Origin: an uncultured Alphaproteobacteria bacterium
GTDB taxonomy: Bacteria > Pseudomonadota > Alphaproteobacteria > Rhodobacterales > Rhodobacteraceae
Length of the DNA: 64,000 nucleotides
Direction: 5' to 3'
NCBI GenBank assembly: GCA_963772935.1
Contig: CAVYZK010000001.1
Location: forward strand, 166,001 to 230,000
This document shows, one piece after another, positions 35,756-51,709 of the stretch; position 1 is the first letter of the stretch; every line of letters starts with the position of its first letter. The position numbers and the translations under genes are program-made. Below the pieces are notes generated by a model. That model worked only from the letters and a program-made list of their open reading frames with translations, was not told the DNA's origin and did no database searches.

Positions 35756-36579
35756 TTAAGGCACGGCTGTCGCCTGCATGGTCACCACCCCATCCCATCG
35801 CCGCACCCGCAAGGCAATTGCATCGCCTTGGTGCCGTGCCTCAATCTGAACGGCGTTGCCACAGATCAACGGTGCCAGTCCGCGATAGCGAAAGCTGTGC
35901 GGCAAACGGCCCAGAAGTGTTGTGGAAGGTTCAGCATCCAAAGCGCCTGCAAGGGACCATGCACAACCAGCCCCTCGTAGCCTTCCACCCCCGTCGCATA
36001 GGGCAGATCGTAGTGAATGCGGTGGCCGTTGAAGGTGACGGCAGAATAGCGAAACAGCAAAACCGGGTCGGGCGTGATCTGCCAAACGGCATCAGGCACC
36101 CAATCTTCGGCGGGGGCCGGATTTGCGCTTTGTCCCGGTTTGGGGTCGTCACGGTAGACCAGATCTTGCCGTTCGGTGATGCGGGTTTGGCCCTCTACGC
36201 GCCACAGATGGGTGATGCTGACAAAGCCAAGCGGCCCGGATGCGCCAGATTTGAAGCTGATCTCGCCCACAGTGCTGTCACGGGTGACGATATCGCCGGG
36301 GTTGAGTATGCCGGAAAACTCCATCTCTCCCCCCGCCCACATCCGGCGTGGCAAGGGCAAGGCTGGCACGAACAGTCCGGTGCGCGGGTGGCCGTCACGG
36401 CCAAGATCGGCGGGGCCCGCCACATCGGGCACCAAGGCCCAATGAAAGCCGGGCGGCACCGCGCCGGGACCAAGCATACCCGCCATGACCGCGCGAAAAT
36501 GCGTCAACGACCGGTCGCTGATGAGTTCCGTTCTCGACGATTGCCGTCCAACCCAATCGCTGTAATCGTTTGGATTCAT
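35756..36579 (-). pseudogene. MaoC-like (hot-dog) acyl-CoA hydratase, itaconyl-CoA hydratase-like, 1-nt frameshift near 35935-35955
   Basis: The 237-aa ORF runs cleanly to '...GLVVHGPLQAL'. It then continues in another frame as 'LDAEPSTTLLGRLPHSFRYRGLAPL...MQATAVP'. Span is 824 nt (3n+2). ATGA overlap with the PrpD-family stop. Confidence 0.7.
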
Positions 36580-37871
36580 CCCAATACCTTACCCAAATCA
36601 CGCGCGCTCAGGCTATCCAGCGCCGCGATTATAGCCCATATTTTCTCACCCTCTGCACCAATCAGACCGGTCGCCTTTGCGCGCAGGCTGTTTTCCAGCA
36701 CCGCGTCTGGCAAGCGCGCGGCAAGGTCATACGCAAAGGGCATAGCACCGCCATCCTTAAGCTGCACCACACCTGCCGCCTGCATATCCGTCACGGCGGC
36801 ATCGCCCTCTACGGTCATCTTGGCCGCAAAATCGGCCAGCACATCATCTTGCGCCAAAGCATCCGTATAGGCGCGGTCGCTGGCGGTGGGGATGCCGGTC
36901 AGCACCATGCCAGCCAGCCAGTTATAGCTGAACTTCACCTCCAGCCCAGTGCGCGGAGCCTTGATATCGCAGACCGAAAGCCAGCGCGGACTGGTGCGCA
37001 GATGGACGGATGCCACCCGATCAGGAGTCAGATTATGCGCGTGTTTCAAAGCGGCCAGCGCCTCAATCATTGCATGGGTGCCATGGCAGCAGGCGTGCAG
37101 TTTGTACTTAACATCCTCGAACAGGAATGCGCCCGGTGGTGGGCTGGGCTGTGGGGCGTCAGCATGGGTCAGAACAAAGCCCTGCGCCCCCATCAACCCA
37201 TCGTCGGCCGAGGTGAAGCCCGCGCGCGCAAGCCCCGCACATTCGACACCGTTCGAGGCCGCAATCCCGGCGTTATAGGGTTTGCCCATTGTGCCGAACT
37301 GCGATTTCAATCCCGACGCGCGGGTTGCGCATAGGCCAATCGCCACGCGCATCTGATCACGAGTCAACCCATACAGCCACCCCGCAGCAACCGTCGCGCC
37401 AAAGGCCCCGGCGGTGGCTGTCTGATGGAAACCCCTGTTATAATGCCCCGCCCCCAGGACCATGCCGATACGAACCGAAGCTTCGGCCCCGATCAGGAAG
37501 GCATCCGCCACCGCCGCAGCAGAGGCACCAACCGCCTCGCCCACCGCCAGAGCCGCAGGATAAATCGCCACCGATGGATGGCCGACATGGCCAAAATGCG
37601 TGTCGTCATAATCCAGCGCATGGCCGGTGGCCCCATTCACCAGCGCCGCTGCCCGCACGGGGGCTTGCGCGCCGCCAAAGACCGAAGCAACAGGCACGCC
37701 GCCCTCTGCGCCGATATAATTCCGCAGGATCACCGCCAGCGGTTCATCCACCCCGGCGCGCCCGCACACCAGCCAGTCAAACAGTGAAAATCGCGCCATG
37801 CTGCGCGCAGATGCGGGAACGTCGCCCGCAGGCATCGCTGACAGATCAAGGATTTGTTCCAGCAGAGTCAT
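36576..37871 (-). CDS. MmgE/PrpD-family protein
   Basis: 431 aa with 'DYDDTHFGHVGHPS' and a 'GFHQTATAGAFGA'-type MmgE/PrpD motif. ATGA overlaps at both ends. Confidence 0.8.
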   Translation of the reverse strand: MTLLEQILDLSAMPAGDVPASARSMARFSLFDWLVCGRAGVDEPLAVILRNYIGAEGGVPVASVFGGAQAPVRAAALVNGATGHALDYDDTHFGHVGHPSVAIYPAALAVGEAVGASAAAVADAFLIGAEASVRIGMVLGAGHYNRGFHQTATAGAFGATVAAGWLYGLTRDQMRVAIGLCATRASGLKSQFGTMGKPYNAGIAASNGVECAGLARAGFTSADDGLMGAQGFVLTHADAPQPSPPPGAFLFEDVKYKLHACCHGTHAMIEALAALKHAHNLTPDRVASVHLRTSPRWLSVCDIKAPRTGLEVKFSYNWLAGMVLTGIPTASDRAYTDALAQDDVLADFAAKMTVEGDAAVTDMQAAGVVQLKDGGAMPFAYDLAARLPDAVLENSLRAKATGLIGAEGEKIWAIIAALDSLSARDLGKVLG

Positions 37872-39046
37872 GCTGCAGCCCCGTAAGATTTGGGCAATCC
37901 CAACACCTGCTCTGCAATGTAGCACAAGATCAGGTTGGTAGAGATCGGAGCCACCTGATACAGTCGGGCCTCACGGAATTTGCGTTCCACATCATATTCT
38001 TCCGCAAACCCAAAGCCACCATGCGTTTGCAAGCAAGCCTCGGCAGCCTCCCAACTGGCATCTGCTGCCAGCATCTTGGCGGTGTTGGCCTCGACCCCCG
38101 GATTGTGACCCGCATCATACATTGCGGCGGCGCGGTAAACGATGGCTTCTGCCGCCATCATATGGGCGTAAGCGCGCGCCAGAGGGAACTGCACGCCTTG
38201 GTTCTTGCCGATTGGCGCGCCAAAGATCACCCGTTCCTTGGCATAGGCCGATGCCTTGTCGATGAACCACTTGGCGTCCCCGATACATTCCGCTGCAATC
38301 AGGATGCGTTCGGAATTCATCCCCGAAAGAATATAGCGAAACCCTTTGCCCTCTTCGCCAATCAGGGACGAGGCCGGGATGCGCACATTGTCAAAAAAAA
38401 CCTCTGTGGTGGCATGGTTGATCATGGCGCGGATCGGGCGGATGGTCACGCCGTTACCGACCAGTTTGCGCAGGTCGATCAGGAACACCGACAGCCCGTC
38501 CGTCTTGGATTTCGCCTGATCGCGCGGCGTGGTACGGGCCAAAAGCAGCATCAGATCGGTATGTTCGGCGCGGCTGGTCCAGATTTTCTGGCCGTTGATC
38601 ACATAGTCATCGCCGTCCCGCCGGGCGGTGGTTTTCAACGCCAGCGTGTCGGTGCCGCTGGTCGGCTCTGTCACACCAAAGGCCTGCAGCCGCAGTGATC
38701 CTTCGGCGATACCCGGCAGATACTGCTGTTTTTGCGCATCATTGCCATGCCGCAGCACGGTGCCCATCGTATACATCTGCGCGTGGCAGGCGGCAGCGTT
38801 GCAGCCGTTTCGATGAATCTCCTCAAGAATAACCGCCGAGGCCTGCAGGTTCAGACCCGATCCGCCGTAACTTTCGGGTATCATCGCGGCCAGATAGCCT
38901 TCGCGGATCAGCGCCGCGACAAAATCGGTCGGATAGGCCTTGCGGGCATCCAGATCGCGCCAGTACGCCCCCGGAAAGCCCGCACAAACATTGGCCACGC
39001 CTTCACGGATGGCAGCATATTCGGCGGTCGGATCAAAACTGGTCAT
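37868..39046 (-). CDS. acyl-CoA dehydrogenase
   Basis: 392 aa with 'VTEPTSGTD' and the C-terminal 'GGFGFAEEYDVERKFREARLYQVAPISTN' ACAD signature. Confidence 0.85.
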   Translation of the reverse strand: MTSFDPTAEYAAIREGVANVCAGFPGAYWRDLDARKAYPTDFVAALIREGYLAAMIPESYGGSGLNLQASAVILEEIHRNGCNAAACHAQMYTMGTVLRHGNDAQKQQYLPGIAEGSLRLQAFGVTEPTSGTDTLALKTTARRDGDDYVINGQKIWTSRAEHTDLMLLLARTTPRDQAKSKTDGLSVFLIDLRKLVGNGVTIRPIRAMINHATTEVFFDNVRIPASSLIGEEGKGFRYILSGMNSERILIAAECIGDAKWFIDKASAYAKERVIFGAPIGKNQGVQFPLARAYAHMMAAEAIVYRAAAMYDAGHNPGVEANTAKMLAADASWEAAEACLQTHGGFGFAEEYDVERKFREARLYQVAPISTNLILCYIAEQVLGLPKSYGAAA

Positions 39047-39159: not shown

Positions 39160-40089
39160 TCAGAACACCGCCTCCATGGACGACTGAATGGCTTTTGCAC
39201 GATTGAAGATGGCCTCGGACAAAATCTCAGGCAACCGGTGTTCGGGCGTGCTGGGACGCAGAAGCGCAATCGTGCGCACCATGGCAGGCTCACTGATCAT
39301 GCTGATCGAAAAACGCCCCTCAGCGGCATCTGTCGCCACGGAATGGTAGGGCAGTATTGTGGCAAAATCACCCGAAGTGCCGTCCAGCATCGCTTTCACT
39401 GCGTTCAGGCTGTCAAGCTCAAGCGCGGGCACCAACGGGATGCCGCGTGTGGCTGCCACCGCGTCGATGATGCGGCGCAGTTGATGGTGGGCACTGGGCA
39501 GGATCAAGCGTTGGCGGGAAAGGTCATCCAACGTCAAAGGATGGGTGGATTGCCTCTGCCCGGCCAGCACCAGCTTTTCCGATAGAAGGTTGGTCACATC
39601 CAGACCGTCGGTATCAGGCTGGCTGTAAGTCAGCGCCAGATGCAACCGCCCGCAGGCCATAAGACTGCGAAGATCGCCGGAATAAGCCTCTATCACCGTA
39701 AGGGTCAAAGTTGGCGCAGACTGACGCAGCGCCTCTTGCAGAGGTGCCAGAAACAGCGGTGCGATGGTGGGGCAGATGCCAAGGCTGACATGCGCAGGGC
39801 CTGCCCCAAAATCGCGCTGCACCCGCTCGATCAGCAGATCAAGGCTTTCCAGATGCAATCGCGCACCGCTCATCAGTGCGGCTCCTGCCTCGGTTGGCAC
39901 GGCGTTGCGACCATTGCGGGTGAACAACTCCATCCCCAACTCGTGCTCCAGCAGTTGTACCTGCCGGGTCAGGGCGGGCTGCGCGATACCGATCACCGGG
40001 GCAGCCTTGGAAAACCCGCCATTGTCGCAGACCGCCACAAAGTAGCGCAGCCGCCGGATGTCCACACCGGGTTTTTCCAACCGTCCCAT
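39160..40089 (-). CDS. LysR-family transcriptional regulator
   Basis: 'IRRLRYFVAVCDNGGFSKAAPVIGIAQPALTRQVQLLE' HTH. The ATG lies 3 nt after the transporter stop (TAG-CGG-ATG). Confidence 0.85.
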   Translation of the reverse strand: MGRLEKPGVDIRRLRYFVAVCDNGGFSKAAPVIGIAQPALTRQVQLLEHELGMELFTRNGRNAVPTEAGAALMSGARLHLESLDLLIERVQRDFGAGPAHVSLGICPTIAPLFLAPLQEALRQSAPTLTLTVIEAYSGDLRSLMACGRLHLALTYSQPDTDGLDVTNLLSEKLVLAGQRQSTHPLTLDDLSRQRLILPSAHHQLRRIIDAVAATRGIPLVPALELDSLNAVKAMLDGTSGDFATILPYHSVATDAAEGRFSISMISEPAMVRTIALLRPSTPEHRLPEILSEAIFNRAKAIQSSMEAVF

Positions 40090-40092
40090 CCG

Positions 40093-41967
40093 CTACCGCC
40101 CCTCAACGCTGCGCGCCGAAACTCGGGTCAGGCTAGAGGCGATCCAGTCGGGCGCCGTTTTGCTGGCTGGATCATCCAACACCACCCGGCGCAGGCCCTG
40201 ATCCGACGTTGTGCCAAGCTGCGCGCCATAGGTCAGCCACCAGACCAGCGGCACGCCAATCAGCCAGAACAGCAATTGCCAGACCCAAAGGGATGGCACA
40301 CCCAAGGCGGCATCGCCGGTGGTGAAAATCGGCTGGCTGAAAAAGGTGTTCCCCAGGATCGCCCCCGGCCCCAAGGCGAAGAACGCCCAGATCAAGGTCA
40401 GTGACCATTTCGCGTTGCGCGCGGGCTTGGTCCCGAAATCGACGCGCCATGTTGCAGCAAATTCATCATGCAGGCGGTCGCGGTGCCTGCGTTCGGCCCC
40501 GCTGCGGGTGAAGATTGCAACCAGCAGCACCGCACCGACGTTGAAGGCAAGTCCCCAGGCGGCAGAGTGGATGGTCAACGGCCAGCGACCCCATGGCAAA
40601 TCCACAAACAGCCCCTCAAACAGGATCAGGCCCAGTGGTTCGGTGAACAGCACCATCAGCCCGCCAAAGATCAGGCCGACCAGAACCGCACTGCGGCTGA
40701 TCCAGCGCAGGAAGGTGAGGCCCAGAAACGCAGGCAGCATCTGCACCGCCAAGGGCAGGGCAAGGCTGCCGAAGACCGCTGACGCGAGGGGCGCAAAGGC
40801 GGCAAGGGCCGCCACAAGCGCAAAGGCGATGGCCAGAGTGACACGAATGGTCAGCCGGGCCTTGGCAGGCGACAGATCGGGCAGAACATATGGCAAGATC
40901 ACGTCGCGGCAGACCAATATCGCGCCTGAGGTGGTAAAGAAAGCGACCGCCATCTGCGCTGTGACGATCACAAGCAGCAGAAGGCCAACCCCGGCAAATG
41001 GCTCTATCACGCCGAGTTCGGCGGCAAGCGCCGCTGGCCCCTGCCCCATCCGCAACGCGAGCATCGGCCCCGCGATCAGCAGCACCCCCGTCAGTAACGC
41101 CGCAATCAGCCAGACCGGCGCAAACCCCGCGCTCCGCCCGGCCCGCGCCGTCATGCCAAGGAACAAGAATCCCGGCGACAGCACGATCCCGATCAGCGAC
41201 AGCGCGGCCGACGCAATCCCGACCCCGGTGAAGATGCCACCCTGTGGCGCGCCTTTACCGATGCCCGCCGAAAACTGGATCACGCCGGGGATCTGGTCGG
41301 CAAGGATGCCCGTAGCGACGGGCATTGCAGCAGTGGGAAATCCCGGCCCACTCAACATCAACGCGCCGAACCCGGCCAAACCCGGAAGCAGCACGACCAG
41401 CAGCACCGATTGCAGCGCCAACACCAGCACGGTGGCACGCCAACCGCCGATCACGGCAGGCAGGAACAAAAAGAACGCCGTCACCCAGATTGCCGTGGCG
41501 CGGGGCACAGCACCATTCGTTGCCTCCGCCAGCAGCCCGCCCAGTTGTGCCAGCAGGTTAGCGGCAAAGGGCAAGCCGAACAGCAGTGCCAGCGTCAGCA
41601 TCACGATGCGCAGCGACACGCTTTGATAATAGCGTCCCAGCGCCTCGCCGGGGCTGGACAGCCCGGCAATCCGCGCCGCCAACCAAAGGCGTTTTTGCAG
41701 CAGCAGCGCGGTCAGGGCGGCAAGGATCAGGCCAAGGGCGATGTGACTGGCTTGCAAACCGAAGCGGTTGATCAGGGCAAGATGGTCAGACAGACCCATA
41801 CCCGCCACCATCACCCCGGCCGAAGCAAAGCTGACTGCCCAGCCGGGCAGATCAGCCCCCGCGTCACCGAAACTCGCAGGCGCAGGCGCGGCGCGGGCCA
41901 CGAGGGCCGCAAGATACACCCCGACAGCCACCAGAAAGGCGAGCGTCATGATCAGGAACGGCGTCAC
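40093..41967 (-). CDS. large polytopic membrane transporter, sodium:solute symporter (SSF)-like
   Basis: About 624 aa with at least 12 hydrophobic segments and a Gly/Ala/Leu-rich composition. GTG start forms a GTGA overlap with the upstream small-protein stop. The family call is tentative. The track start at 42306 is rejected because it overlaps. Confidence 0.5.
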   Translation of the reverse strand: MTPFLIMTLAFLVAVGVYLAALVARAAPAPASFGDAGADLPGWAVSFASAGVMVAGMGLSDHLALINRFGLQASHIALGLILAALTALLLQKRLWLAARIAGLSSPGEALGRYYQSVSLRIVMLTLALLFGLPFAANLLAQLGGLLAEATNGAVPRATAIWVTAFFLFLPAVIGGWRATVLVLALQSVLLVVLLPGLAGFGALMLSGPGFPTAAMPVATGILADQIPGVIQFSAGIGKGAPQGGIFTGVGIASAALSLIGIVLSPGFLFLGMTARAGRSAGFAPVWLIAALLTGVLLIAGPMLALRMGQGPAALAAELGVIEPFAGVGLLLLVIVTAQMAVAFFTTSGAILVCRDVILPYVLPDLSPAKARLTIRVTLAIAFALVAALAAFAPLASAVFGSLALPLAVQMLPAFLGLTFLRWISRSAVLVGLIFGGLMVLFTEPLGLILFEGLFVDLPWGRWPLTIHSAAWGLAFNVGAVLLVAIFTRSGAERRHRDRLHDEFAATWRVDFGTKPARNAKWSLTLIWAFFALGPGAILGNTFFSQPIFTTGDAALGVPSLWVWQLLFWLIGVPLVWWLTYGAQLGTTSDQGLRRVVLDDPASKTAPDWIASSLTRVSARSVEGR

Positions 41968-42431
41968 CGGCGCTCCCCCCGGTTCAGGCGCGAGGCACGG
42001 CGGGGGTTGTTGTCGCGGATGATGTCGAACCGTGCAAACGCATCGCGGGTGCCAAAGCGCGTCAGCATGTAGAACACGGCGGCTAGCAGCAGGACGATCA
42101 TCCCCCCTGCCACCGGCAGAAAGAACCGCGCGGCAAAGCCGTCGCCCAGCAATACCGCCAGAACCAGTGCCACCAGCCCGGTCGCATAGACCACCATCGC
42201 CAGCCCCACCTCGCGCGGGGTGAAACCCGTGCCCAGTGTGGCATTGACGATCACATGCGCCGCAAACCCCGCTAGCAAGGCGGCGAACCCGCCCGCCACC
42301 CACCACGCGCCACCGGGGCCAAAACCGTAGTGCAGCAGCCCCAGTGCCACGAACCCCGCAGGCAGCCAGACCGCCAGCACCAGCGCGTGACGGTCCAGCC
42401 GCATGGTGGCCTCATCCTCTGACGACATCAT
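41964..42431 (-). CDS. small integral membrane protein (about 4 TM), unknown family
   Basis: 155 aa with four hydrophobic segments and a basic tail '...NNPRRASRLNRGERR'. Translationally coupled to the transporter gene. Confidence 0.5.
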   Translation of the reverse strand: MMSSEDEATMRLDRHALVLAVWLPAGFVALGLLHYGFGPGGAWWVAGGFAALLAGFAAHVIVNATLGTGFTPREVGLAMVVYATGLVALVLAVLLGDGFAARFFLPVAGGMIVLLLAAVFYMLTRFGTRDAFARFDIIRDNNPRRASRLNRGERR

Positions 42432-42444
42432 TCAAGCCCCCGTT

Positions 42445-44650
42445 TCAGTCGTCATCCTTGTCGGCCTTCGGGGCCGGAACCGGCGCGAAGTTGCGGAAGG
42501 ACATGCCGCCCGCCGAGCCAAGGTTCTTCAGCGGCAAGCCGATTTCCTCCATCAAGCCCGTCCACGAAGGCCACTTGGGTGCGGTACTTCATCGCTGAAT
42601 TCACCACCTGATCGGACACATTGCCACCGCCGCCGCCACCGGACCCGCCAGAGCCGGTTTCAGATGGGCTGTTCAGCCCCGGCAAACCATCGACATGCAG
42701 GATCTTGATGCTGTCGATGTTTTCCATCGGCTTGACGGTTTCCTTGATGATCGCAGGCAGGGTCTTGACCAGATGTTCGTAGATTGCCGACCGGCGGCTT
42801 TCGTCGTTCCGCATGTTCTCGGCATCATTCAGCTTGCGCTGACCTTCCGCGTCAGATTCGTAGCGCACGTCTGCCGCATGGGCCTCGGCAATCTCGGCCA
42901 GGGCGCGCTGTTCCACAGCCTGCTTATCGGCCTCGGCGGCGCGGACCGTGCGCAGGGCATCGCGTTCGGCCGCGGATTCAGCCGCGATAATCTCCACCCG
43001 CGCGTTTCGGTTGGCACCTTCCTCCGCGCGCACCGTCGTGACCTGTTCCTCGGCCACCGCCAGCACGCGGCGGGCCTCGGCCTCGGATGTGCGCACCACG
43101 GCCTCTTCGATGGCCTTGTTGACCACGGCAATCAGGCGCTGCTTGTCGGCCAGTTCAATCTCCATGTCCTGCTCGATCACAAAGCGGTCGATGTATTTCT
43201 GCGCGGCGATCCGCAGTTCTTCCACCTCGCGCGAGGCCACGATCTGCGCATCCTCGACCCGCCGGAAGCTGAGCGTTTCGGCCAGTTTGATCTTCTGCTG
43301 CTTGGCGATTTCCTGTTGCGCGACTTCCTCGTCGGCCTTCACCCGGTCAAGGTCAACCGCCTGCCGCTTGGCGATGACGGCGCGTTCCTGTGCCGCCGCC
43401 GCCTGTTCGTTTGACACGCGGATGTCGCGGCCCTTGGCCACCTCCAGCAGTTCGATCTCCATCGAGGTGGCGATGCGCGCGGCTTCCACCTCGCGGTCAC
43501 GGTCAAGGCGGGCCTGTTCAATCTCGCCCGTCGATTTCACGTCATAAACCTCAAGCTCCAGCCGCGATTTGATCTCGGCCTCCTTGATCTGGCGGTCGCC
43601 TTCGATGCGGTCGGATTCGACCTGCTGGCGGGTCTGGATGCGCTGTGTTTCAAGCGCCGAGCGTGAGGCAATCTCGGCCAGTTCAGTATCTTTCTGCCGC
43701 TCAATCTCCAGACTGCGGGTGTCGTTTGCCGCACGGATGCGTTCGGCCTCCACCGCCTGATCGGTGGTGATGCGCAGGCGTTCGGATTCCTCTTGCGCGC
43801 GCACCTTGGACTGGTTGATCGAGATGGCGGATTGCGCGCGTTCGGCCTCGATCTCGGCCAGTTGGGCTGCCTTGCGGATTTCGATGGCCCGGCTTTGGTC
43901 GATGCGGGCGTATTCCAGATCGCGGTCGATTTCCAGGGCACGGCTGGCGGCCTCGTAATCCTTTTGCTTGATGTCGATGCGGGCCTCATTCTCAATCCGG
44001 TTGCGGATCTTGCGGCGGTCCTCGATCTGTTCGGTAAGCTGGGTCAACCCCTCGGCGTCAAAGGCGTTGGACGGGTTGAACACCGAAATATCCGATTGGT
44101 TCAGCGCGGTCAGCGAGGCGTTTTCCAGCTCCAGCCCGTTGGTGCCAAGCGTGGCCCCAGCCTGTTCGGCCACCCGACGGATATATCCTGCACGGTCCTG
44201 ATGAATTTCCTCCATCGTCATGCTGGCCGCAACGGATGCCATGGCGTCGATGAACCGGCTTTGGATGATTTCCTTCAGCGCCATGGGTTCCTGGGTGCGT
44301 GCGCCAAGGGTGCGGGCGGCGGTGGATACACCCTCTTTGGTCGCAATCACCCGCACGAAGAACTCGGCGGAAATATCCACCCGCATCTTGTTGCGGGTGA
44401 TCAGCGATTGTTCCCCCACCCGGCGGATTTCCACCGGGATGGCGTTCATGTTCACCACCGTGATGTCATGGATGATCGGGATCACCAGCGCCCCCCCGCC
44501 CATCACCACACGCTCGCCACCAGACCCGGTGCGCACAAAGCTTTGGTCCTTGGACGAATGGCGATACAGCCAGTGCAGCAGATAGACCCCGACCGCGATC
44601 AGGATCGTCAGAAGTATCAGAATGGCAATTGCATCAGCGCCGGTCATCAT
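42445..44650 (-). pseudogene. flotillin / SPFH-domain protein (YqiK-like), 1-nt frameshift about 35 codons before the stop
   Basis: N-terminal TM segment plus 'FVRTGSGGERVVMGGGALVIPIIH' (compare YqiK 'FVRTGLGGQKVVMSGGAIVMPIFH'), then a long Glu/Ala/Arg coiled coil. After '...YRTQVAFVDGL' the YqiK-like tail 'MEEIGLPLKNLGSAGGMSF...KADKDDD' is in a different frame, with its stop at 42445-42447. Confidence 0.8.
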
Positions 44651-44683
44651 CTTTTCCTTTCGTCAGGCTCACGCCCGGGCAAA

Positions 44684-45376
44684 TCAATACCGTTCCTGGC
44701 CAGCGACGGCCAAAACGATCAGCGACGGGGTGATCAGGTTGATCAGGTCGAACAGGGTATAGAGGGCAATCACACCGGGGGCTTGGCCCGCGCCGATCAC
44801 CACATCGACAAAGTGCAGGATCGGGTAGATCGCCCAGCCGATGGTGAAGATCAGGCGTATCCAGAAATAGCCCAGACGCACGGCCCGGCTGCCCTTGCGG
44901 ATGGCATCGGGCATCGCCCCGAAATACATCTCGCCCAGAATATACAGCCAGAACCCGATGGACAGCAGCGCGCCAAGCGTGGGGTTGAAGAACGCGGCAT
45001 CGCCCAGATAGCGTGAAAACACCATCAACAGCGCCGCCGCCGTCATCCGCCAGAACACGCCCACCGGGATTTTCCCCATGCTGCGGGCAAAGAAGTAGAC
45101 CGCCGCCACCTGCAAGGGCTGCACGGTGAACCAGCCGGAAAACCGGATGCCGCCACTGGCCTTGCCCGCCATCAGCCACAGCGATGTGGCCCCGGCATAG
45201 TGCAGCGCGCTCGCCAGCGCCGCCACTCCCACCATCGCCACCGGCAACCGCCATTTGTCACCCGACCATGTCAGGCCCAGAAAGCACAGGATCGCGGTAG
45301 AGAACGTCGCCAGCAAGGCCGCCGCAAAGGCGCTGCTGACCACATCTTGCGAGGTATACAAAGCTCCGAACATCAT
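44684..45376 (-). CDS. proteorhodopsin/xanthorhodopsin-fold 7-TM protein lacking the retinal-binding lysine (opsin-like, K->L)
   Basis: Collinear with green proteorhodopsin as recalled: 'ALHYAGATSLW', 'RFSGWFTVQPL', 'LLMVFSRYLGDA', 'GWAIYPILHF', 'YTLFDLINLITPSL'. Leu214 (CTG 44735-44737) replaces the Schiff-base Lys. AGGAAGG upstream of ATG 45376. Confidence 0.7.
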   Translation of the reverse strand: MMFGALYTSQDVVSSAFAAALLATFSTAILCFLGLTWSGDKWRLPVAMVGVAALASALHYAGATSLWLMAGKASGGIRFSGWFTVQPLQVAAVYFFARSMGKIPVGVFWRMTAAALLMVFSRYLGDAAFFNPTLGALLSIGFWLYILGEMYFGAMPDAIRKGSRAVRLGYFWIRLIFTIGWAIYPILHFVDVVIGAGQAPGVIALYTLFDLINLITPSLIVLAVAGQERY

Positions 45377-45385
45377 GTGCCCTTC

Positions 45386-46769
45386 CTAGACTTGCGCTCT
45401 GATATGCGGCGATCGGCCATACAGCGCGACCATCGGCAAGATCAGCAGACCGAAGATGAATTGTTGCCATTCGTATTTCAGGCCGATCCCGATCAGGAAT
45501 GATGACAGCACCTGAAGCACCAGCACCCCGATCACGGTGAACCCGTAGCCACCGTTGCCGCCAATCAGCGAGGTGCCGCCAATGACCACTGCCGCCAGCG
45601 TGGTGAACAGATAGGGATCGCCCACCCCGATGAACCCGCCGCCCGACCACCCCAGCAGCAGCGATCCGGTCAGGGCGGCAAACACGCCCGACAGGGTGTA
45701 GGCGAGGGTCCAGTATTTGAACTCGCGACACGCCGATCAGCTTGGCTGACCGACGGTTGCCGCCAAGCGCATAGATGTAGCGACCGTAGGCCGAATAGCG
45801 CAGCGCCACGATCACGATAATCGCCAGCACGATCCAGATCAGGATGGTGGGCGGAAAGCCAAGGCCAAAGGTCTGCCCGTTCATCGCCGCCAGATTCTGC
45901 AACCACGGCGGCACCGTGCCGAACACGTTGCCGCCAAAGGCCGACCCGATGGAGGTCAGGATCTGCGTCAGCCCCGCCACCGCAAACCCCATGCCCAGCG
46001 TCATGATCAGCGCCTGCCCTTGCAGTTTGTAACTGAGCACCCCGTTGATGAACCCGATCACCCCGCCGATGATCAGCACAAACCCCGCCGCCACGAAGGA
46101 TGGCACCCCAAGGCTGATCAGGAACAAAAGCCCGATGTTGGATGCCCCGATCACGAAGGGGATCGACAGGTCCAGCCCCCCCATCAGCGCCACCAGCGTC
46201 TGCCCGATACAGGCGATGCCAAGGAAGGCCGCGAACAGCAGGATCGCCTTGATGTTGGGGCCGGACAGGAACCCCTCAATCGTGAAGGATGAAATCACGA
46301 TCAGGGCCACCAGCACGATCAACCCGATAAACGCGGAACGGCCCGTGGCGAACTGGCCCGAGACTTTGAAGGCGAACAGCAAGATCGCCTCCAGCACCAG
46401 AAAGGCGATCAGGTTGGTGATCGACCGGAACTCTGGCACAGTGGCCGTGACGATCAGATAGACCAGCAAAAGCAGGACCATGGCGATGATCAGCACCCGG
46501 TTGGACCGCCAGACCCCGGCGGTTTTCGGTGCCGGATCGCGCACCACCGCGCGCGTCTCGAACATCACCGCGATGTAGTTCAGCAGCCACAGCAGCACGG
46601 CGACCGAGATCACCGTCGAAAGGATCACGGTCTGCGCCTTGACCCCCTGCCCAAAGCCAAGGCCAAAGCCGATGGCGGCGACGATCAGGGCCAGCGCAAG
46701 GTTCATCCAGATCAGAAAACCCGAGCGGGGAATGGGGATCAGGTGCTGGCGTGGTGGCAGATCGGTCAT
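45386..46769 (-). pseudogene. sugar-type ABC permease with about 130-aa extra N-terminal TM region, 1-nt frameshift near 45720-45733
   Basis: Core motif 'LVALMGGLDLSIPFVIG'. The reading frame is good to '...GGNRRSAKLIGVS'. It continues in another frame as 'REFKYWTLAYTLSGVFAALTGSLLLGW...'. Span is 1384 nt (3n+1). ATGA overlap with the preceding permease. Confidence 0.8.
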
Positions 46770-48113
46770 GGCGCGCCTCCGTCAAACAGGGTCAGAGGGC
46801 CTTGGCCCGCGACCACGGCGAACAGCGCCACGATCAGGACCGCCACGAAGATATACAGAAACAGCCCCATCCGTTTCGCCCGCGCCTCGGCGTTGATCAG
46901 GCGCGCGGCAAGGGCCAGCACGACGGCGGCAAAGGCGGCAAGGAAGGCGACCTTCTGGATCGGGGAAAGGGTCAGGCCAAGGCCGGATGTCCCAGCAGGG
47001 GACACCAGCAGATAACGGGTCAGCAGATCGCCGGGCGCTGCCGCCATGATCGGTTCGGCGGGCAGGTAGATCGCAGATGTTGCCACATGCAGCATGATCC
47101 CGACCACCCCGCAGGCCAGCACCACAAACGCACCCCAAGGCGAGATGAAGGAAATGTGCCGCCCGATCACCGGCACCAGCAGCGTCAGCAGCAGCGACGC
47201 CATCAGGATCAACCCGTAGGCCATCTGCGTCACAAACGCCTGCACCGCGCCAAAGTTGAACGTCGCCAGCACATAGCCGATCAGGTACAGGTTCAGCGCC
47301 CCCAGCAGCGCCCCAGTCACCCCGCCGCGCCCGCCTGCCAGACTGACCCCGCCCAGCACCAAGCGCCGTGGTTGCGGTCAGCGTCATGTTGGTGCCTTGG
47401 GTGGGGTCGCCCGAGGCGATCAGCGCCGTGTAGCAGATCGCACCCAAGCCCACGAAAATCCCGGCAATCACATGCGCGCCGATGCGCACGATGTTGATGC
47501 GCACGCCGCTGGTCCAGGCGGCGCGCTCGTCATAGCCCATCATCCGCAGGTTGGCGTAAAACGGCGTCAGCGTGAACAACAGCCACCCCGCCGTGGCAAG
47601 CAGCACGATCAGCAGCACGGGCGAGAATATGGTGGCCCCAAGGCCCCAGCTTGCCATGAACTCTGGTGCCACACCACCGGGGCGGGGCAGGATCACCAGG
47701 TTGATGCCGGTCAGTGCCAGAAACCCCGACAGCGCCACGATGATCGGCTGCACCCGCACCCAGATCACGATGGCGGCGAACAAAAGCTGGTACAGAACCC
47801 CGATGCCGATTGCCACGAAGAACACGCCGAATGGGCCCGTCACCACCTCCAGCCCGTTCAGTTTGACGATGCTGACGTTGATGAAGGCCAGCAGCGGCCC
47901 CACCGCCAGATCAACCGTGCCGCGACCCGCCACCGCCAGCGCCATCAGCGCATAGGTGGCCAGCGTCAGCGGGGCCGCCACGATGATCGCCGACCCGAAC
48001 CCCGACAGCGACACAAGGCTGGGCCCCCGCACCGCCGCGATGCCCAGAAGCACCGCGATCAGCAGGATCGGCACCAGCAGATAGGTGCTTGTCGAGGAGG
48101 ATCGTTCCGACAT
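46766..48113 (-). pseudogene. sugar-type ABC permease with about 115-aa extra C-terminal TM region, 1-nt frameshift near 47360-47375
   Basis: The frame is good to '...GDPTQGTNMTLTA'. It then continues in another frame as 'VLGGVSLAGGRGGVTGALLGA...', the conserved permease motif. Span is 1348 nt (3n+1). Confidence 0.8.
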
Positions 48114-48177: not shown

Positions 48178-49116
48178 TCAGAGATCAATCACCCGACGCC
48201 CCGCAGGGCGCGGTGACGAGGATGGGGACGACGCAGGGCCAGACAGCGCACGCCCTCCACCCCGGCGTTCGGGATCGTTCTGCACGATCTTTTTCAGCAC
48301 GGGGCTGATCACATCCTTGAACTTCACCGGGTCTTCCGATGTCGGGAAATGCCCGCCCGAGAAGATGATGGTTTCAGACCCCTTCACCTTTTCTGCCGTC
48401 CGCAAGGTCATTTCCGGCGTGCAGGCAAAGTCATATTCCCCGGTCAGGAAATAGATCGGCGTGCGGCCAGAGATCTTGTGAACGGTGTCGCGGAAATCGC
48501 TGTCCACGGAGTAGAAATAGAGGTCGCCCTTGAAGATGCCGGGCCCGCCCTGGGCATAGTACCACCATGTTTCCCAACGATAATCATCCGGGCTTTCCGG
48601 CGACATCAGGCCGAAGGTGCTGGTCGCCACAGCCTCGCCGCCATGGATATGCGGGTGATGCAGCGGGTAAATCCACCAGCCGGGGGAATAGTCGCAAGCC
48701 TCAAGCGCGATGAAGGCCGAAAACTCGTTTTCATACTTCAGCGCCAGTGCCAGACAGATGTTGCCGCCCATGGATTGCCCCATGATCACCGGCTTTTTCA
48801 GATCAAGCGCGCGGCAGAAGGCGACGATGAATTCGGTGTAGAATTTCGTCGTCAGCTTGTACTCATCCTCCATCAGATGGAAATCTGCGGGCGGAATCGA
48901 CTTGCCATGCCACGGCATGTCAAAGGCGATCATGCGGAAATTGGCGGACATGTCCGGGTCGCACATCTGGTGGCGATACTGCCGCCCGTCGGTGCCTGCG
49001 GTGTGCAGGCAGACCATCGGGATGCCCTCGCCATGTTCTTCGTAATAGGTCCGGTAGGTCTTGCCCTCGCAGGTGACATAGACGTAGCGGCCAATGATGG
49101 GGTCGTGCTGGTTCAT
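48178..49116 (-). CDS. alpha/beta-fold hydrolase
   Basis: 'VCLHTAGTDGRQY' and nucleophile elbow 'GQSMGG', 312 aa. The last 30 or so residues are low-complexity (Pro/Ser/Gly/Arg). Confidence 0.75.
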   Translation of the reverse strand: MNQHDPIIGRYVYVTCEGKTYRTYYEEHGEGIPMVCLHTAGTDGRQYRHQMCDPDMSANFRMIAFDMPWHGKSIPPADFHLMEDEYKLTTKFYTEFIVAFCRALDLKKPVIMGQSMGGNICLALALKYENEFSAFIALEACDYSPGWWIYPLHHPHIHGGEAVATSTFGLMSPESPDDYRWETWWYYAQGGPGIFKGDLYFYSVDSDFRDTVHKISGRTPIYFLTGEYDFACTPEMTLRTAEKVKGSETIIFSGGHFPTSEDPVKFKDVISPVLKKIVQNDPERRGGGRALSGPASSPSSSPRPAGRRVIDL

Positions 49117-49126: not shown

Positions 49127-49531
49127 TCACACTTCGCGCATCAGGGACAGCATCCGCGTCAGCGCGCGCATGTTCTGCCAGAACGGCAGGGTGTTGCCGT
49201 CGATCACCAACTGCTTGTGCAGCGGGTGCGCCATCGCCCAGATGTCGTTGAACATCGGCGGCGGGATTTTCATGCTGAACTTGGCCCAGGCGCTGGATGG
49301 CGCGCGCAGGGCAAAGTCGAACCCCATGTCATTGGGGGTCAGTCCTTCGGAAATGCGGGTGATCTTGCCCCCCCGCACCTCGACCAGAAATTCTGTCTCA
49401 TCCACGCCCAGAACAAAACGGTTGGTAAAGAATTTGGCCGTGACCGGCAAAATCCTGTCTTCATTGACGCAGCGCGCCCAGCGTTCGACCCATTCCAGAT
49501 CGAAACCTTTTCTGCTGCCGTATTTACTCAT
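49127..49531 (-). CDS. small soluble protein, SCP2/sterol-carrier-like (tentative)
   Basis: 134 aa with AGGAGG upstream of ATG 49531. The pattern '...FLVEVRGGKITRI...FALRAPSSAWAKF...LVIDGNTLPFWQNMRAL' resembles the SCP2 fold. Confidence 0.4.
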   Translation of the reverse strand: MSKYGSRKGFDLEWVERWARCVNEDRILPVTAKFFTNRFVLGVDETEFLVEVRGGKITRISEGLTPNDMGFDFALRAPSSAWAKFSMKIPPPMFNDIWAMAHPLHKQLVIDGNTLPFWQNMRALTRMLSLMREV

Positions 49532-49562: not shown

Positions 49563-50090
49563 TCATGGGGTTGGCAAAGGTTTGCGGGCCGGGCCGTAAA
49601 CCGCTGTGAAAGAAGCCTGATCAATCGCCACCGGCAGTACGGCAGCGGCGAAAGCCGCGAGGTCAGCCCCCGGTGCTATATCCACGCGGGCCGTCTTCAA
49701 CGCATAAAGCGTGAAGACATAGCGGTGCTGGCGGTCGGGCGGCCAAGGCCCGCCCCAACCGCGCCCGAAGCCCGGAATGCCGAAGGTCACAAAATCGGAA
49801 TTCAGCTCTGCCGCAGGGGACGGCATCGCAAGGCTGTTGCTGGCACCCTCAGCCAGTTCGCGGATATGACCCGGAATGTCATGAACCAGCCAATGCGCGA
49901 AACTGCGGGGAAAGTTGAAGGCGGCCGGCAGGTCGGGGTCGGTGACGGCCAGCGCAAAACTTTGCGTCCCCTCGGGTACCCCCGACCAGCGCAGGGCGGG
50001 CGAAGTGGGGCTTTCTTCGACAAAGCGGTCAGGGACAGTGGACCCTTGCGGAATGTCGGGGGCGGTCAGCAGGAAACCGGATTGGTTCAT
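49563..50090 (-). CDS. YbhB/YbcL-family PEBP (Raf-kinase-inhibitor-like) protein
   Basis: 'SPALRWSGVPEGTQSFALAVTDPD', 'HWLVHDIP' and 'GPWPPDRQHRYVFTLYAL' are PEBP hallmarks. It has its own ATG 50090 with GAGGA upstream. The upstream ATPase frame runs into it without a stop. Confidence 0.7.
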   Translation of the reverse strand: MNQSGFLLTAPDIPQGSTVPDRFVEESPTSPALRWSGVPEGTQSFALAVTDPDLPAAFNFPRSFAHWLVHDIPGHIRELAEGASNSLAMPSPAAELNSDFVTFGIPGFGRGWGGPWPPDRQHRYVFTLYALKTARVDIAPGADLAAFAAAVLPVAIDQASFTAVYGPARKPLPTP

Positions 50091-51709
50091 AGCATCCTCG
50101 GCTGGTTTGGGGCGGGTCAGGGGCACGACGCGCGCAGCGGGGCGGCCATCGTCACGCGGGGGGGTGCGGGGTGTGTCAGGGGCGTCAGCGGTCAGCGGCT
50201 CGGCCGCCCGGCGGCCAAACATCGCGTTCAGGATGACATGACCATCAAACGGCGGGTCAAAATCGGCAGAAATCGAGCCATTGCGAAACACATGCACCCG
50301 TGAACACAGGTTCATGAATTCCTCGATTTCAGACGACAGGAACACCACCGCATTCCCCCGCGCGGCGAAGTCGCGCAGGTTGCGGTAGAGGTCCAGCTTC
50401 GCCCCGATATCAATGCCGCGCGCCGGATCATTCAGCACCAGCACTGTCGGCTTTTCGGCAAAGGCCCGTGCGATCAGCACCTTTTGCTGGTTGCCGCCCG
50501 ACAGCGAGGTGATCAGGTTTTCCGGCGACCCCATCTTCACCGCCAGCTTGCCGGTCTCCCAATCAAAGATCGGTCCCAGCTTGGTACGGTTGATCAGGTT
50601 CAGCCAGCCCCCCGCGCGGTAGGTGCGATAGATCGGCAGCGCCAGATTTTCAAAGATGCCAAGGTTGGCAAAGATACCCTCTTTCTTGCGGTCGCCCGAG
50701 ACGTAGCGATGCCGTTTTCGCGCGCGGACCGCAGGTCGGTGACGGGTTCGGCCACCCCGTCGCGCACCACCGCGATTTGCCCTGACACCAGCGGCGCGAC
50801 CCCGGCCATTGCCCGCACGAATTCGGCCTGCCCCTGCCCATCCAGCCCGGTGATCCCCACCACTTCGCCGGGGAACAGCGTAAAGTCAAAAGCCGCACCA
50901 TCGGCCCAAACCTTGGCCGCCACCATCCGCAACACCGGCAGATCAGAGGACCGGCTGGCCGAAACCTGTGACCCTTGCGCCTTCTCGCGCTCCGGCCCTG
51001 CGATCAGCGCCAGGATGCGCGCTTCAGTAATTTCGTCCTTCTCCAGCGTCCCGACCGTGCGGCCATCGCGCAGCACCGTGGCGCGGTCGGCGATGCGCAC
51101 CAGTTCGGCGATGCGGTGTGTGACGATCATGATGGAACAGCCGCGCGCCTTCATCTGACGCATCTTGCGGAACAGCCGTTCGGTGGAATCGAAATCCAGT
51201 GCCGCCGAAGATTCGTCCAGGATCAGCACCTTGGGGTCGGTCAACAGCGCGCGGCCAATGGTGATCCATTGCTTGATCGACAGGGGCAACTCGCCCGCAG
51301 GTACATCCAGATCGAGATCGAAGCCCAGCAGTTCCGCCATCAGAGCAGATGCCCGCGCGTAGCGTTCTTCGCGGCTGACCGACGACCCCAGCAGGCCGTC
51401 CGCCCCAAGATAAAGGTTGTCCAGCACCGAACATTCATCGGCCACCAGCACTTCCTGAAATACGTTGGAAATCCCCAACTCCCGCGCCTCATGCGGCGAG
51501 GTGGCAGATTTGCCCAGGATAGCAACCTGCCCTTCGTCGGGGATCAGCACACCGGAAATCACCTTGGCGAGGGTACTTTTGCCAGACCCGTTGCCGCCGA
51601 TGATCGCATGAACCTCGCCCTCATAGGCGCGCAGCGATACCCCGCCCAAAGCCACGGTCGGGCCGAAGGTCTTGCGGACCGCAGATATTTCGACCGTGAC
51701 GACAGACAT
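50091..51709 (-). pseudogene. two-NBD sugar ABC transporter ATP-binding protein, 1-nt frameshift near 50698-50712 and no stop of its own
   Basis: NBD1 has 'GGNGSGKST' and 'LILDESSAALD'. After '...ARENGIA' the expected 'YVSGDRKKEGIFANLG...' is in another frame. NBD2 has 'LSGGNQQKVLIARA' and 'LVLNDPARGID'. Start at 'MSVVTVEIS' (51709). Confidence 0.8.

Follow-up and report, generated by a model that had tools for sequence, protein, structure and literature searches.

Several described systems resemble the locus examined here, the closest being the cluster of flotillin-associated rhodopsin (FAR) genes in SAR11, HIMB59 and Pseudothioglobus (Haro-Moreno et al. 2023, mSystems; PMC10308929). In that cluster a substrate-binding protein (SBP), an ABC ATPase and both permeases are listed in all three marine taxa, and marine metatranscriptomes show co-transcription of FAR with flotillin. 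A solved member, PsFAR (9r21/9r23; Kovalev et al. 2025), has its retinal pocket blocked by H84 and E120, and its structure gave "no obvious evidence" that it is adapted to bind flotillin. Lysine-less freshwater FArhodopsins, in which the lysine position is Q, T, L or R (PMC10308929, Fig. 3, Table S4), always adjoin a flotillin gene on contigs that are long enough and retain some FAR-cluster genes. Rh-noK is another natural microbial rhodopsin without the retinal lysine and with a presumed nonphotochemical role; it is related to xanthorhodopsin and adjoins a pump rhodopsin in tandem (PMC10308929). The SPFH/flotillin-NfeD operons (yqiJK, ybbJK and yuaFG) place a gene for a polytopic membrane protein directly 5' of the flotillin/SPFH gene, with which it is co-transcribed.

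The window, a stretch of 64,000 nucleotides, carries a lysine-less version of the 2023 FAR cluster, and thus a form of an already known system. A sequence-only reading knew of no described system in which an opsin-fold protein is coupled with a flotillin and a secondary transporter; the FAR cluster is such a system and includes a sodium/solute symporter (PMC10308929). Nine gene families, 27 to 60% identical, are common to the window and the marine clusters: FAR, flotillin, SBP, ATPase, two permeases, an SCP2-like protein, an α/β-hydrolase and an SSS-type symporter. In both forms a proteorhodopsin-derived 7-TM protein without an N-terminal leader is encoded on the strand of the flotillin gene and directly 5' of it, with a short spacer. 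They differ in that, in the window form, a PEBP domain is fused to the ATPase, the symporter is coupled to a small 4-TM protein, and LysR, acyl-CoA dehydrogenase and PrpD genes are often present, whereas three genes common to all marine FAR clusters, a DMFase-like gene and those of two small proteins, are absent from the window and from all 80 related loci retrieved. The core genes of the window form lie on one strand in ~13 kb, against ~26 kb for the marine cluster, and its hosts are Alphaproteobacteria with large, high-GC genomes rather than streamlined plankton.

Positions 40093-45376 are the downstream half of this conserved ~13-kb cluster, which runs, on the minus strand, SBP, ABC ATPase-PEBP, SCP2-like protein, α/β-hydrolase, permease A, permease B, FAR, flotillin, small 4-TM protein and SSS-fold transporter; LysR is the next gene in the lineage of the window. 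The opsin-to-LysR genes are therefore not a module "appended to an ABC operon," as first proposed, since the FAR cluster itself includes a conserved SBP, ATPase and permease pair, 42 to 60% identical to those of the window. The tight co-directional packing is borne out by rereading, with gaps of 9, 33, 13 (20 as read), -4 and 3 nt from permease B to LysR. The permease B stop TAG (45386-45388) lies 9 nt from the opsin-like ATG at 45376, and a second ATG at 45373 yields 229 amino acids, the length found in all homologs. The opsin-like stop (44684-44686) is followed after 33 nt by the flotillin ATG at 44650. As read, the flotillin frame stops at 42452, 20 nt ahead of the small-protein ATG at 42431; with its frameshift corrected it ends ...KADKDDD* at 42445-42447, 13 nt from that gene, so that an extra base at 42556 accounts for the earlier estimate of about 13 to 20 nt. 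The small-protein stop overlaps the transporter GTG as GTGA (41964-41967), and the transporter stop (40093-40095) precedes the LysR ATG at 40089 by 3 nt. Spacing in Cypionkella (L002) matches, at 12, 34, 13, -4 and 3 nt, and no terminator-like intergenic site is present inside the core cluster.

Evidence that this order is maintained comes from the relatives of the opsin-like protein, which are encoded in 153 species-level genomes. We retrieved 80 species-level loci and based gene counts on those with enough flank. Order and strand are identical in all 74 such loci, which exceeds chance; this neighborhood survey, suggested by the sequence-only reading, shows that the adjacency is clearly not peculiar to the genome of the window. 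Carriers include many cultured Alphaproteobacteria from soil, nodules, clinical material and sediment, among them 13 Mesorhizobium strains, Paracoccus haematequi, Shinella, Taklimakanibacter and Pseudoxanthobacter, and a sister cluster with Arg at the lysine position resides on plasmids of Pararhizobium gei, Hoeflea and Martelella. The branch of freshwater lysine-less FArhodopsins most likely includes both the Leu clade of the window and the plasmid Arg clade. Those freshwater contigs are short and taxonomically unassigned, with a "lack of SAGs or isolates," whereas the clade described here has named and often cultured carriers and a full cluster; its sequence motifs were not found in the portion of the Haro-Moreno et al. 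2023 supplementary tables that was available. What is new is the occurrence of a lysine-less FAR cluster in many cultured soil, plant and water bacteria, and also on plasmids.

The opsin-like protein (44684..45373, minus strand; 229 amino acids) matches Bac_rhodopsin (PF01036, E 1.6e-8), and its best solved-structure match is PsFAR (E 2.6e-32, 115 bits), ahead of the proteorhodopsins in the PDB (1e-17, at most 68 bits). It is 34% identical to SAR11 FAR. The Schiff-base Lys is replaced by Leu (DLINL against DFLNK in PsFAR), which upholds the earlier description of a lysine-less rhodopsin-fold 7-TM protein, and the positions of proteorhodopsin D97, T101 and E108 are Gly, Val and Ala; the counter-ion Asp is thus Gly throughout the clade, and the DxxNL and G-V-A motifs recur in all of its members. 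At the PsFAR H84 position the window has Gln and most relatives have His, while the E120 position is an invariant Arg. The non-DTE motif and bulky retinal-pocket residues are common to the marine and window proteins; the Leu, the Gly and the Arg set the latter apart. Neighbor joining places the lysine-less clades together with 100% support without resolving a sister relationship to the marine FARs, so common ancestry with the latter rests on pairwise scores and the nine-gene synteny. Unlike Rh-noK, the window protein has FAR and proteorhodopsin as its nearest relatives, and its neighbors are an ABC permease and a flotillin.

With Leu at the Schiff-base site and Gly at the counter-ion site, the protein is predicted to be unable to bind retinal, and it is almost certainly a nonphotoactive member of the rhodopsin fold. 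These losses, together with the pocket-blocking residues, point to a light-independent 7-TM protein, which by analogy to PsFAR is probably pentameric. Haro-Moreno et al. favored another role for marine FARs, as partners or modulators of a true proteorhodopsin encoded elsewhere, in flotillin-built hetero-oligomers that would tune proton pumping to dim light (PMC10308929). In marine single-cell genomes FAR always occurs with a DTE proteorhodopsin and heterocomplexes were proposed (PMC10308929), and PsFAR and PsPR form similar pentamers (Kovalev et al. 2025). For the window clade, however, this role is most improbable: the Lys, counter-ion Asp and donor are lost, the carriers include many cultured soil, nodule, clinical and sediment Alphaproteobacteria as well as plasmids, and a 4.6-Mb Shinella replicon has one rhodopsin-like place only. 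Nor was a second rhodopsin found in the window by tblastn with eight marine FAR-cluster proteins, or in the part of it surveyed for ORFs and Pfam domains. Light independence is likewise suggested by the cultured carriers, the plasmid-borne Arg clade and the Shinella replicon.

Purifying selection on FAR (dN/dS 0.07 to 0.15) is as strong as on the enzymes, and R77, R121, D209, N212 and Q/H85 form invariant or nearly invariant polar positions at the former pocket and counter-ion sites. Both features would suit a protein converted to ligand binding or conduction, be it a chemosensor, a channel or an accessory substrate-binding subunit, whose former retinal pocket, with charged and polar residues as its present lining, would bind the substrate of the cluster; in PsFAR, water-filled cavities take the place of that pocket. 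As those cavities are small and fragmented (Kovalev et al. 2025) and Pfam detects no transducer or signaling domain in the cluster, we consider such a conversion very unlikely.

Directly after FAR in 79/79 loci comes a FloT/YqiK-type flotillin of ~734 amino acids (42445..44650, minus strand; Band_7 and Flot in Pfam), with an N-terminal TM helix, an SPFH domain, a long coiled coil and a Flot domain. It shares 42% identity (E 1e-87) with the flotillin of the SAR11 FAR cluster and is an intact 734-amino-acid frame in L002. The earlier suggestion that the opsin-like gene occupies the slot usual for NfeD/YqiJ-type flotillin partners agrees with our survey, as Pfam gives no NfeD match among the neighboring genes. 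The upstream partner is of the rhodopsin rather than the NfeD fold, and on gene position the FAR-flotillin pair may work as NfeD-flotillin pairs do.

The next two genes are translationally coupled. The first (41964..42431, minus strand) encodes a small 4-TM membrane protein of 155 amino acids, or possibly 146 from an ATG at 42404, belonging to an uncharacterized family; Pfam and NCBIfam return no match and its homologs are unnamed. Its AF2 model is a four-helix bundle (pLDDT 81) for which no fold match was found in the PDB, and R14, H15, H59, N63, E74, D136 and R139 are invariant. It is collinear in 74/74 loci and is present in the plasmid Arg-clade clusters. The second, also collinear in 74/74, has a GTG start and encodes a divergent SSS/SLC5-fold secondary transporter of 624 amino acids (40093..41967, minus strand). 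Its description as "SSF-like" fails in the sequence libraries, where Pfam, NCBIfam and PDB searches give no match, even with a profile, and holds for the fold: the AF2 model (pTM 0.87) has SLC5/SSS transporters as all of its top 28 Foldseek PDB matches (CHT1, DUR3, SGLT1/2, NIS, SiaT, vSGLT and SMCT1 among the members matched), and the protein is 27% identical to the SAR11 FAR-cluster symporter. An SLC5-fold transporter encoded with an overlapping upstream gene for a small membrane protein recalls SSS/SLC5 symporters with small accessory subunits, such as SGLT-MAP17 and the bacterial pairs ActP-YjcH and DUF4212-SSS. In contrast to those pairs, the window transporter leaves SSF sequence models unmatched, and the 4-TM protein matches known accessory families neither by sequence nor by fold.

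Upstream, the importer begins with a periplasmic SBP of CUT2 type (51819..53012, minus strand; Peripla_BP_4, E 2e-37), whose nearest PDB relatives are CUT2 sugar/polyol binders; it is 60% identical to the Pseudothioglobus FAR-cluster SBP and collinear in 60/61 loci. The ATPase (49563..51709, minus strand; ABC_tran) is 48% identical to its SAR11 counterpart and one intact 716-amino-acid frame in Cypionkella L002, and its C-terminal PEBP domain (PF01161) is collinear in 62/64 loci. Then come the small soluble SCP2-like protein (49127..49531, minus strand; no Pfam match; 32% identity, E 5e-21, to the SAR11 FAR-cluster protein with an SCP2 sterol-binding domain; 65/65 loci) and the α/β-hydrolase (48178..49116, minus strand; Abhydrolase_1; 43% identity, E 2e-85, to SAR11 cds05; 68/68). 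Permease A (46766..48113, minus strand) and permease B (45386..46769, minus strand) are both BPD_transp_2 by Pfam, 52% and 42% identical to SAR11 cds18 and cds17, and collinear in 73/73 and 74/74 loci; permease A is an intact 452-amino-acid frame in L002.

The constancy of the SCP2-like protein (65/65), PEBP (62/64) and flotillin (79/79), all of lipid-associated families, raises the possibility of a membrane-lipid module, in which these three and FAR, as a putative light-independent phospholipid scramblase or lipid-handling protein, would remodel or maintain membrane microdomains and the transporters would be secondary. In the dark, a proteorhodopsin does improve membrane integrity through a scramblase activity that is independent of retinal (PMC10730872). 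We regard this module as unlikely, since the SBP and permeases are the most conserved proteins of the cluster (dN/dS 0.02 to 0.13), which argues for solute uptake as its central role, and no lipid role is established for bacterial PEBP and SCP2 domains in such a context.

Our preferred reading, to which we assign a probability of roughly 75%, is a conserved lysine-less FAR cluster with a light-independent FAR and a proposed role in flotillin-organized uptake; such an uptake platform is our best inference on function. FAR would be made with flotillin from one transcript and would stand in for the NfeD-type protein as the partner that the flotillin assembly has within the membrane. The microdomain so formed might hold or tune both co-encoded uptake systems, the CUT2 ABC importer and the SSS-type symporter plus small subunit, and the imported compound could be processed by the co-encoded hydrolase, binding proteins and lineage-specific catabolic genes. 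LysR or another regulator may act at a conserved element upstream of the SBP gene. The mechanism as a whole, a FAR-flotillin microdomain tuning co-encoded uptake, is tentative, with the odds against it. The sequence-only reading had arrived at a flotillin microdomain with a nonphotoactive 7-TM subunit, essentially the published working hypothesis.

Four genes of the window copy carry frameshifts. Relative to both closest genomes, flotillin has one extra base at 42556 that shifts its last ~35 codons and permease B a 1-base insertion at about 45726; likewise, the ATPase is broken by a 1-base deletion near 50704-50707 and permease A by a 1-base insertion at 47361, the last seen against L001 and L002. 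The window copy could be inactive on this account, and the breaks would fit a decaying pseudogene cluster whose tight spacing is a relic. This is distinctly unlikely, as two further frame-breaking indels, at 35926 and 34752 in the adjoining 5.4 kb, show a similar density outside the core, which is typical of assembly error and points to that cause for the single-base indels. FAR, the small protein, the transporter, LysR, SBP, hydrolase and the SCP2-like protein are intact in the window, and the cluster genes of its relatives are all intact and under purifying selection.

The genes at the downstream edge vary among lineages. The LysR-family regulator (39160..40089, minus strand; HTH_1 and LysR_substrate in Pfam) is often, though not always, the last gene of the cluster: it keeps its position and strand in 46/70 loci and is missing from about a third. 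Catabolic genes identified by Pfam (35866..39046, minus strand) often accompany the cluster: acyl-CoA dehydrogenase (37868-39046; collinear in 22/67 loci), MmgE/PrpD (36576-37925; 31/66) and a FAS1/MaoC-like dehydratase (35866-36579; frameshifted at 35926). These three are neighborhood genes outside the conserved core. At the other end, an element GGATATACCGCTGCGATATAGCGGATATACGAAAAACCTATTTCC (53102..53146, minus strand) that ends ~90 nt 5' of the SBP start codon is a candidate operator/promoter of the FAR cluster. Alignment of the upstream regions of 14 related loci shows this block to be conserved in loci with a LysR gene, while the upstream sequence differs in two loci without one (L010 and L011). 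The window contains its 18-nt core, TATAGCGGATATACGAAA, once, where chance predicts 0 copies.

The opsin-like protein of the window (229 amino acids, 44684–45373 on the minus strand) scores best, in pairwise comparison, against the flotillin-associated rhodopsins (FARs). Its best sequence match in the PDB is the "flotillin-associated rhodopsin" of entries 9r21 and 9r23, the marine protein PsFAR (E = 2.6e-32, 115 bits), with proteorhodopsin entries following at E = 1e-17 or worse and at most 68 bits. Residues 10 to 224 align with PsFAR and with proteorhodopsins, placing the protein in the type 1 rhodopsin fold of the proteorhodopsin family, and the Pfam family PF01036 is matched above its gathering score (E = 1.6e-8). 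The FArhodopsins known from SAR11, HIMB59, and Pseudothioglobus genomes (Haro-Moreno et al. 2023; PMC10308929) are invariably encoded beside a flotillin, with both genes on one strand and cotranscribed. In the published "FAR gene cluster" the pair is accompanied by an ABC transporter and a sodium/solute symporter, as well as by an SCP2-domain protein and an α/β-hydrolase (PMC10308929). The kind of system seen here has thus been described before, and the claim of the sequence-only reading that no such coupling was known does not hold.

Comparison with the marine protein sequences of Table S2 in PMC10308929 extends the relationship to the whole cluster. Identity to the marine counterpart is 34% for FAR, 42% for the flotillin, 60% for the SBP, 48% for the ABC ATPase, 52% and 42% for permeases A and B, 43% for the α/β-hydrolase, and 32% for the SCP2-like protein. 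Both a CUT2 ABC importer (42 to 60%) and a sodium/solute symporter (27%) are therefore present, and they are collinear in 60 to 74 of the related loci that we collected. As the ABC genes match their marine FAR cluster counterparts, the ABC operon and the membrane module belong together in one conserved cluster, and the latter is not, as had been proposed, an appendage of the former. A neighbor-joining tree (100 bootstraps) joins the lysine-less sequences with Leu at the Schiff-base position (Leu clade), to which the window protein belongs, to a sister plasmid group with Arg (Arg clade) at 100%. The tree does not resolve how these two clades, the marine FARs, and the proteorhodopsins branch from one another, and membership among the FARs rests on the pairwise scores and the nine-gene synteny. 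On this footing, we put at about nine in ten the probability that the window holds a FAR cluster of the lysine-less kind, kept together as a unit.

Differences from the marine clusters are also apparent. The spacer between FAR and flotillin is 33 nt in the window versus 16 nt in the marine genomes (PMC10308929), although in both the FAR gene lies directly upstream on the same strand. The marine clusters all carry a DMFase-like gene and genes for two small soluble proteins, whereas the window cluster has none of the three; tblastn with these proteins, which occur in all three marine taxa, found nothing in the window and nothing in the 80 related loci. We also considered Rh-noK proteins as an identity for the lysine-less protein. 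These are xanthorhodopsin related and stand in tandem with a functional rhodopsin, whereas here the nearest relatives are FARs and proteorhodopsins and the neighbors are a permease and a flotillin, and this identity was rejected.

The co-directional layout proposed from the sequence was borne out by a six-frame ORF listing and by direct reading of the minus strand. The permease B stop (45386–45388) is followed after 9 nt by an ATG at 45376, and a second ATG at 45373 gives the 229-amino-acid protein, a length common to all homologs. The end of the opsin-like gene, at 44684, and the flotillin start, at 44650, are separated by the 33-nt spacer. The small membrane protein gene starts at 42431 and shares the GTGA at 41964–41967 with the large transporter gene; the transporter gene ends at 40093, and 3 nt separate it from the LysR ATG at 40089. 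Read as it stands, the flotillin frame runs to 42452, leaving a gap of 20 nt to the small-protein gene. Relative to the two closest genomes, there is one extra base at 42556, and in the corrected frame the protein ends in APKADKDDD with its stop at 42445 and the gap is 13 nt; these two possible flotillin ends account for the range of 13 to 20 nt reported earlier.

To survey the gene neighborhood, we used an alignment of FAR homologs to scan the GTDB set, with a single genome for each species, and then searched the fetched loci with the window proteins by tblastn. A FAR relative is encoded in 153 species-level genomes, from which 80 loci were fetched, and collinearity (same order and strand) was counted only where the flank was long enough. 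The flotillin gene follows FAR in 79 of 79 loci, and permease B, the small four-transmembrane (4-TM) protein, and the SSS-like transporter are each collinear in 74/74, so the adjacency is not unique to this genome. Upstream, the same is true of permease A (73/73), the α/β-hydrolase (68/68), the SCP2-like protein (65/65), the ATPase (63/63), its PEBP part (62/64), and the SBP (60/61). Conservation then falls away at the other end, where LysR lies directly after the transporter in 46 of 70 loci and MmgE/PrpD and acyl-CoA dehydrogenase genes are collinear in 31/66 and 22/67. The lysine-less FAR cluster is thus an operon with sharp limits, about 13 kb long, found in over 150 species-level genomes with many cultured carriers.

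The nearest named genomes are those of Pseudotabrizicola sp. 4114 and a Cypionkella sp., with 86.5 to 86.7% DNA identity over 18.5 kb. Further isolates with the cluster belong to Microbaculum, Paracoccus haematequi, Pseudohoeflea, Ruegeria, Roseovarius, Albidovulum, Taklimakanibacter, and Pseudoxanthobacter, together with 13 Mesorhizobium strains; Shinella is also among the carriers, and metagenome-assembled genomes add SAR116, Rhodospirillales, and a few Gammaproteobacteria. Roseovarius indicus and Cypionkella sp. TWP1-2-1b2 are examples of cultured carriers. A short contig (872 bp) of Paenibacillus sp. SY21-1 holds an alphaproteobacterial-type FAR gene and the end of permease B, most likely as contamination of that assembly.

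The published FAR work drew only on single-cell genomes and short metagenomic contigs, and its authors noted the lack of isolates for the lysine-less branch (PMC10308929); motifs of the Leu clade gave no match in the portions of the supplementary tables of that paper that were searched. The window is a new Rhodobacterales member of this branch. Within the literature searched, the full definition of the lysine-less cluster variant appears to be new, as do its occurrence in many cultured, large-genome, partly nonaquatic Alphaproteobacteria and on plasmids, the fusion of the ATPase with PEBP, and the small 4-TM partner. With cultured carriers at hand, FAR function becomes testable.

Lysine-less freshwater relatives of FAR have been reported with Q, T, L, or R in place of the retinal lysine (PMC10308929). 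While marine FARs keep this Schiff-base lysine, the window protein and every aligned Leu clade sequence have Leu there, within a DxxNL motif in helix G. The DTE proton-pump motif (D97/T101/E108 of proteorhodopsin) is replaced by G-V-A in the aligned Leu clade; marine FARs have DTT, DTL, or DNI at these positions (PMC10308929). The solved PsFAR binds no retinal, as H84 and E120 fill the pocket (Kovalev et al. 2025). A FAR is expected to have a bulky residue at the H84 position and either a side chain at E120 or a compensating Trp. At the H84 position, the window protein has Gln85, with His, Leu, or Met in relatives and Val in proteorhodopsins, and at the E120 position the Leu clade has an invariant Arg121, where proteorhodopsins have Gly. 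Residue comparison thus places a bulky residue and a side chain at the two sites whose roles are known from the PsFAR structure, and we infer that the seven-transmembrane protein of the window binds no retinal and is light independent. The same residues leave a pocket that is now polar, and a rival reading is that FAR is a ligand-binding or conducting protein that works through it.

The hosts and the lost residues together weaken another explanation, that FAR is the partner of a co-resident proteorhodopsin. We saw no second rhodopsin in the examined parts of the 64-kb window, and a 4.6-Mb Shinella replicon has one rhodopsin-like place. The cultured and plasmid carriers likewise weaken the idea of a dim-light helper of proteorhodopsin and favor a role that is independent of light and linked with the uptake of solutes.

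A decayed copy is a further rival, as six genes of the window are broken by single-base indels relative to both of its closest relatives. Four of these lie in the cluster, in the ATPase (50704–50707), permease A (47361), permease B (about 45726), and the flotillin C terminus (42556), and two lie outside the core, in a MaoC/FAS1-like dehydratase (35926) and one further gene (34752). Pseudogenization specific to the cluster was rejected as the main reading on account of these outer indels. As the density, about one per 3 kb, is similar inside and outside the FAR cluster, the indels look like assembly error, for example of a long-read metagenome-assembled genome, rather than pseudogenization. In Cypionkella, every cluster gene is intact, with gaps of 12, 34, 13, −4, and 3 nt. 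The dN/dS of FAR between relatives is 0.07 to 0.15, comparable to that of the cluster enzymes; FAR is therefore a functional gene rather than a relic.

The flotillin, with Band_7 (E = 1e-13) and C-terminal Flot (E = 3.6e-30) Pfam matches and an N-terminal membrane anchor, is of the FloT/YqiK type, and its N terminus and the one of the SAR11 FAR cluster flotillin are almost identical. No NfeD match to Pfam or NCBIfam models was found in FAR, the small 4-TM protein, or any other cluster protein, which sets the cluster apart from flotillin-NfeD operons. Gene order, read with what is known of SPFH proteins, suggests that FAR may instead be the membrane partner of the flotillin, in the slot held elsewhere by NfeD. 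The FAR-flotillin assembly could then serve as a platform organizing the co-encoded ABC and SSS uptake systems, a tentative proposal, drawn from gene order and from analogy with SPFH proteins, for which the odds are somewhat unfavorable. A stronger version, which we consider slightly less probable again and on the whole unlikely, is that the rhodopsin fold was exapted as an obligate, retinal-free flotillin partner replacing NfeD and that the resulting cage or platform is required for ABC and SSS uptake in nonphototrophic Alphaproteobacteria, including rhizobia, and on plasmids. If so, the FAR system would be a light-independent organizer of transport and no accessory of proteorhodopsin phototrophy.

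The description of the 624-amino-acid transporter as SSF-like stands at the level of fold and fails at the level of sequence. Twelve members of the transporter clade gave no SSF (PF00474) match at E values up to 10, and neither the single sequence nor a 12-member profile found a Pfam, NCBIfam, or PDB sequence match. An AlphaFold2 model built with 20 homologs (pLDDT 80, pTM 0.87) has the LeuT-type fold, and its top 28 Foldseek matches in the PDB are all SLC5/SSS proteins, namely, CHT1, DUR3, SGLT1/2, NIS, SiaT, vSGLT, and SMCT1 (E down to 1e-9, TM scores of 0.5 to 0.69). It is placed with SLC5 solely by its predicted fold and by its similarity to the SAR11 symporter. The conserved small membrane protein (155 amino acids) has four helices and polar residues that are invariant. 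It has no Pfam or NCBIfam family and no named homolog, and its confident AlphaFold2 model has no fold match in the PDB; NfeD, a DUF485/DUF4212-type subunit, and cytochrome oxidase subunit IV were considered, and none is supported. Its GTGA overlap and 74/74 co-occurrence with the transporter gene suggest that it may be a small subunit of the symporter.

On the import side, the fusion of a CUT2 ABC ATPase with a C-terminal PEBP domain (PF01161) is unusual. In Cypionkella it is a single 716-amino-acid ORF (positions 3614–5764 of locus L002), and in the window (49563–51709, minus strand) no stop codon falls between the two parts. PEBP and the SCP2-like protein figure in the remaining rival, in which FAR is a lipid scramblase or part of a lipid module with these two proteins, for which PMC10730872 offers a lead. 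The PDB relatives of the SBP are generic CUT2 sugar/polyol binders and those of the hydrolase are meta-cleavage-product hydrolases and esterases, neither of which is decisive as a clue to substrate.

Further hints on substrate come from the Arg clade, a more distant FAR version (39 to 42% FAR identity) on plasmids of Pararhizobium gei (conjugative; plasmid p2, L082:1833–16003), Hoeflea (sp. IMCC20628), and Martelella. The one P. gei copy that was read has Arg at the lysine site (DILNR). The core set recurs in the two loci examined, P. gei and Hoeflea, with an SCP2-sized protein, hydrolase, SBP, ATPase, permeases, rhodopsin, flotillin, small protein, and a 637-amino-acid "hypothetical" protein. 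Both loci add an IclR regulator, an AttM-type lactonase, and an iron alcohol dehydrogenase, and genes for the latter two also occur in the SAR11 FAR cluster (PMC10308929), a hint that the substrate could be of the lactone or hydroxy-acid type. Together with the 5-oxoprolinase and DMFase-like genes of the marine clusters, they provide a lead, and only that, toward a lactone, lactam, or amide.

Within the core, a terminator/promoter scan found no intergenic terminator-like site, the total count being not above shuffled expectation; cotranscription of FAR and flotillin has been demonstrated only for marine SAR11 (PMC10308929). The LysR protein has an N-terminal HTH_1 domain (E = 2e-20) and a LysR substrate-binding domain (E = 6e-28), and no NCBIfam equivalog scores above its cutoff. 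An element of about 45 nt, GGATATACCGCTGCGATATAGCGGATATACGAAAAACCTATTTCC (53102–53146, minus strand), lies upstream of the SBP gene. Related loci that carry LysR share it, two loci that lack LysR have a different sequence there, and it is a candidate operator or promoter for the cluster as a whole. A GntR/UTRA-family regulator (53840–54598, minus strand) is encoded some 830 nt before the SBP gene, on the same strand, and is not conserved beside the cluster, with one weak match among the 80 loci. After LysR, the minus strand from 35866 to 39046 encodes an acyl-CoA dehydrogenase, MmgE/PrpD, and a FAS1/MaoC-like dehydratase, collinear in about a third to half of related loci, which may be a catabolic arm particular to the lineage, possibly regulated by LysR. 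Another CUT2-type ABC transporter, not related to the first, lies at about 24900–27700 (minus strand); its permease and ATPase are 24 to 32% identical to those of the FAR cluster, and it appears ordinary.
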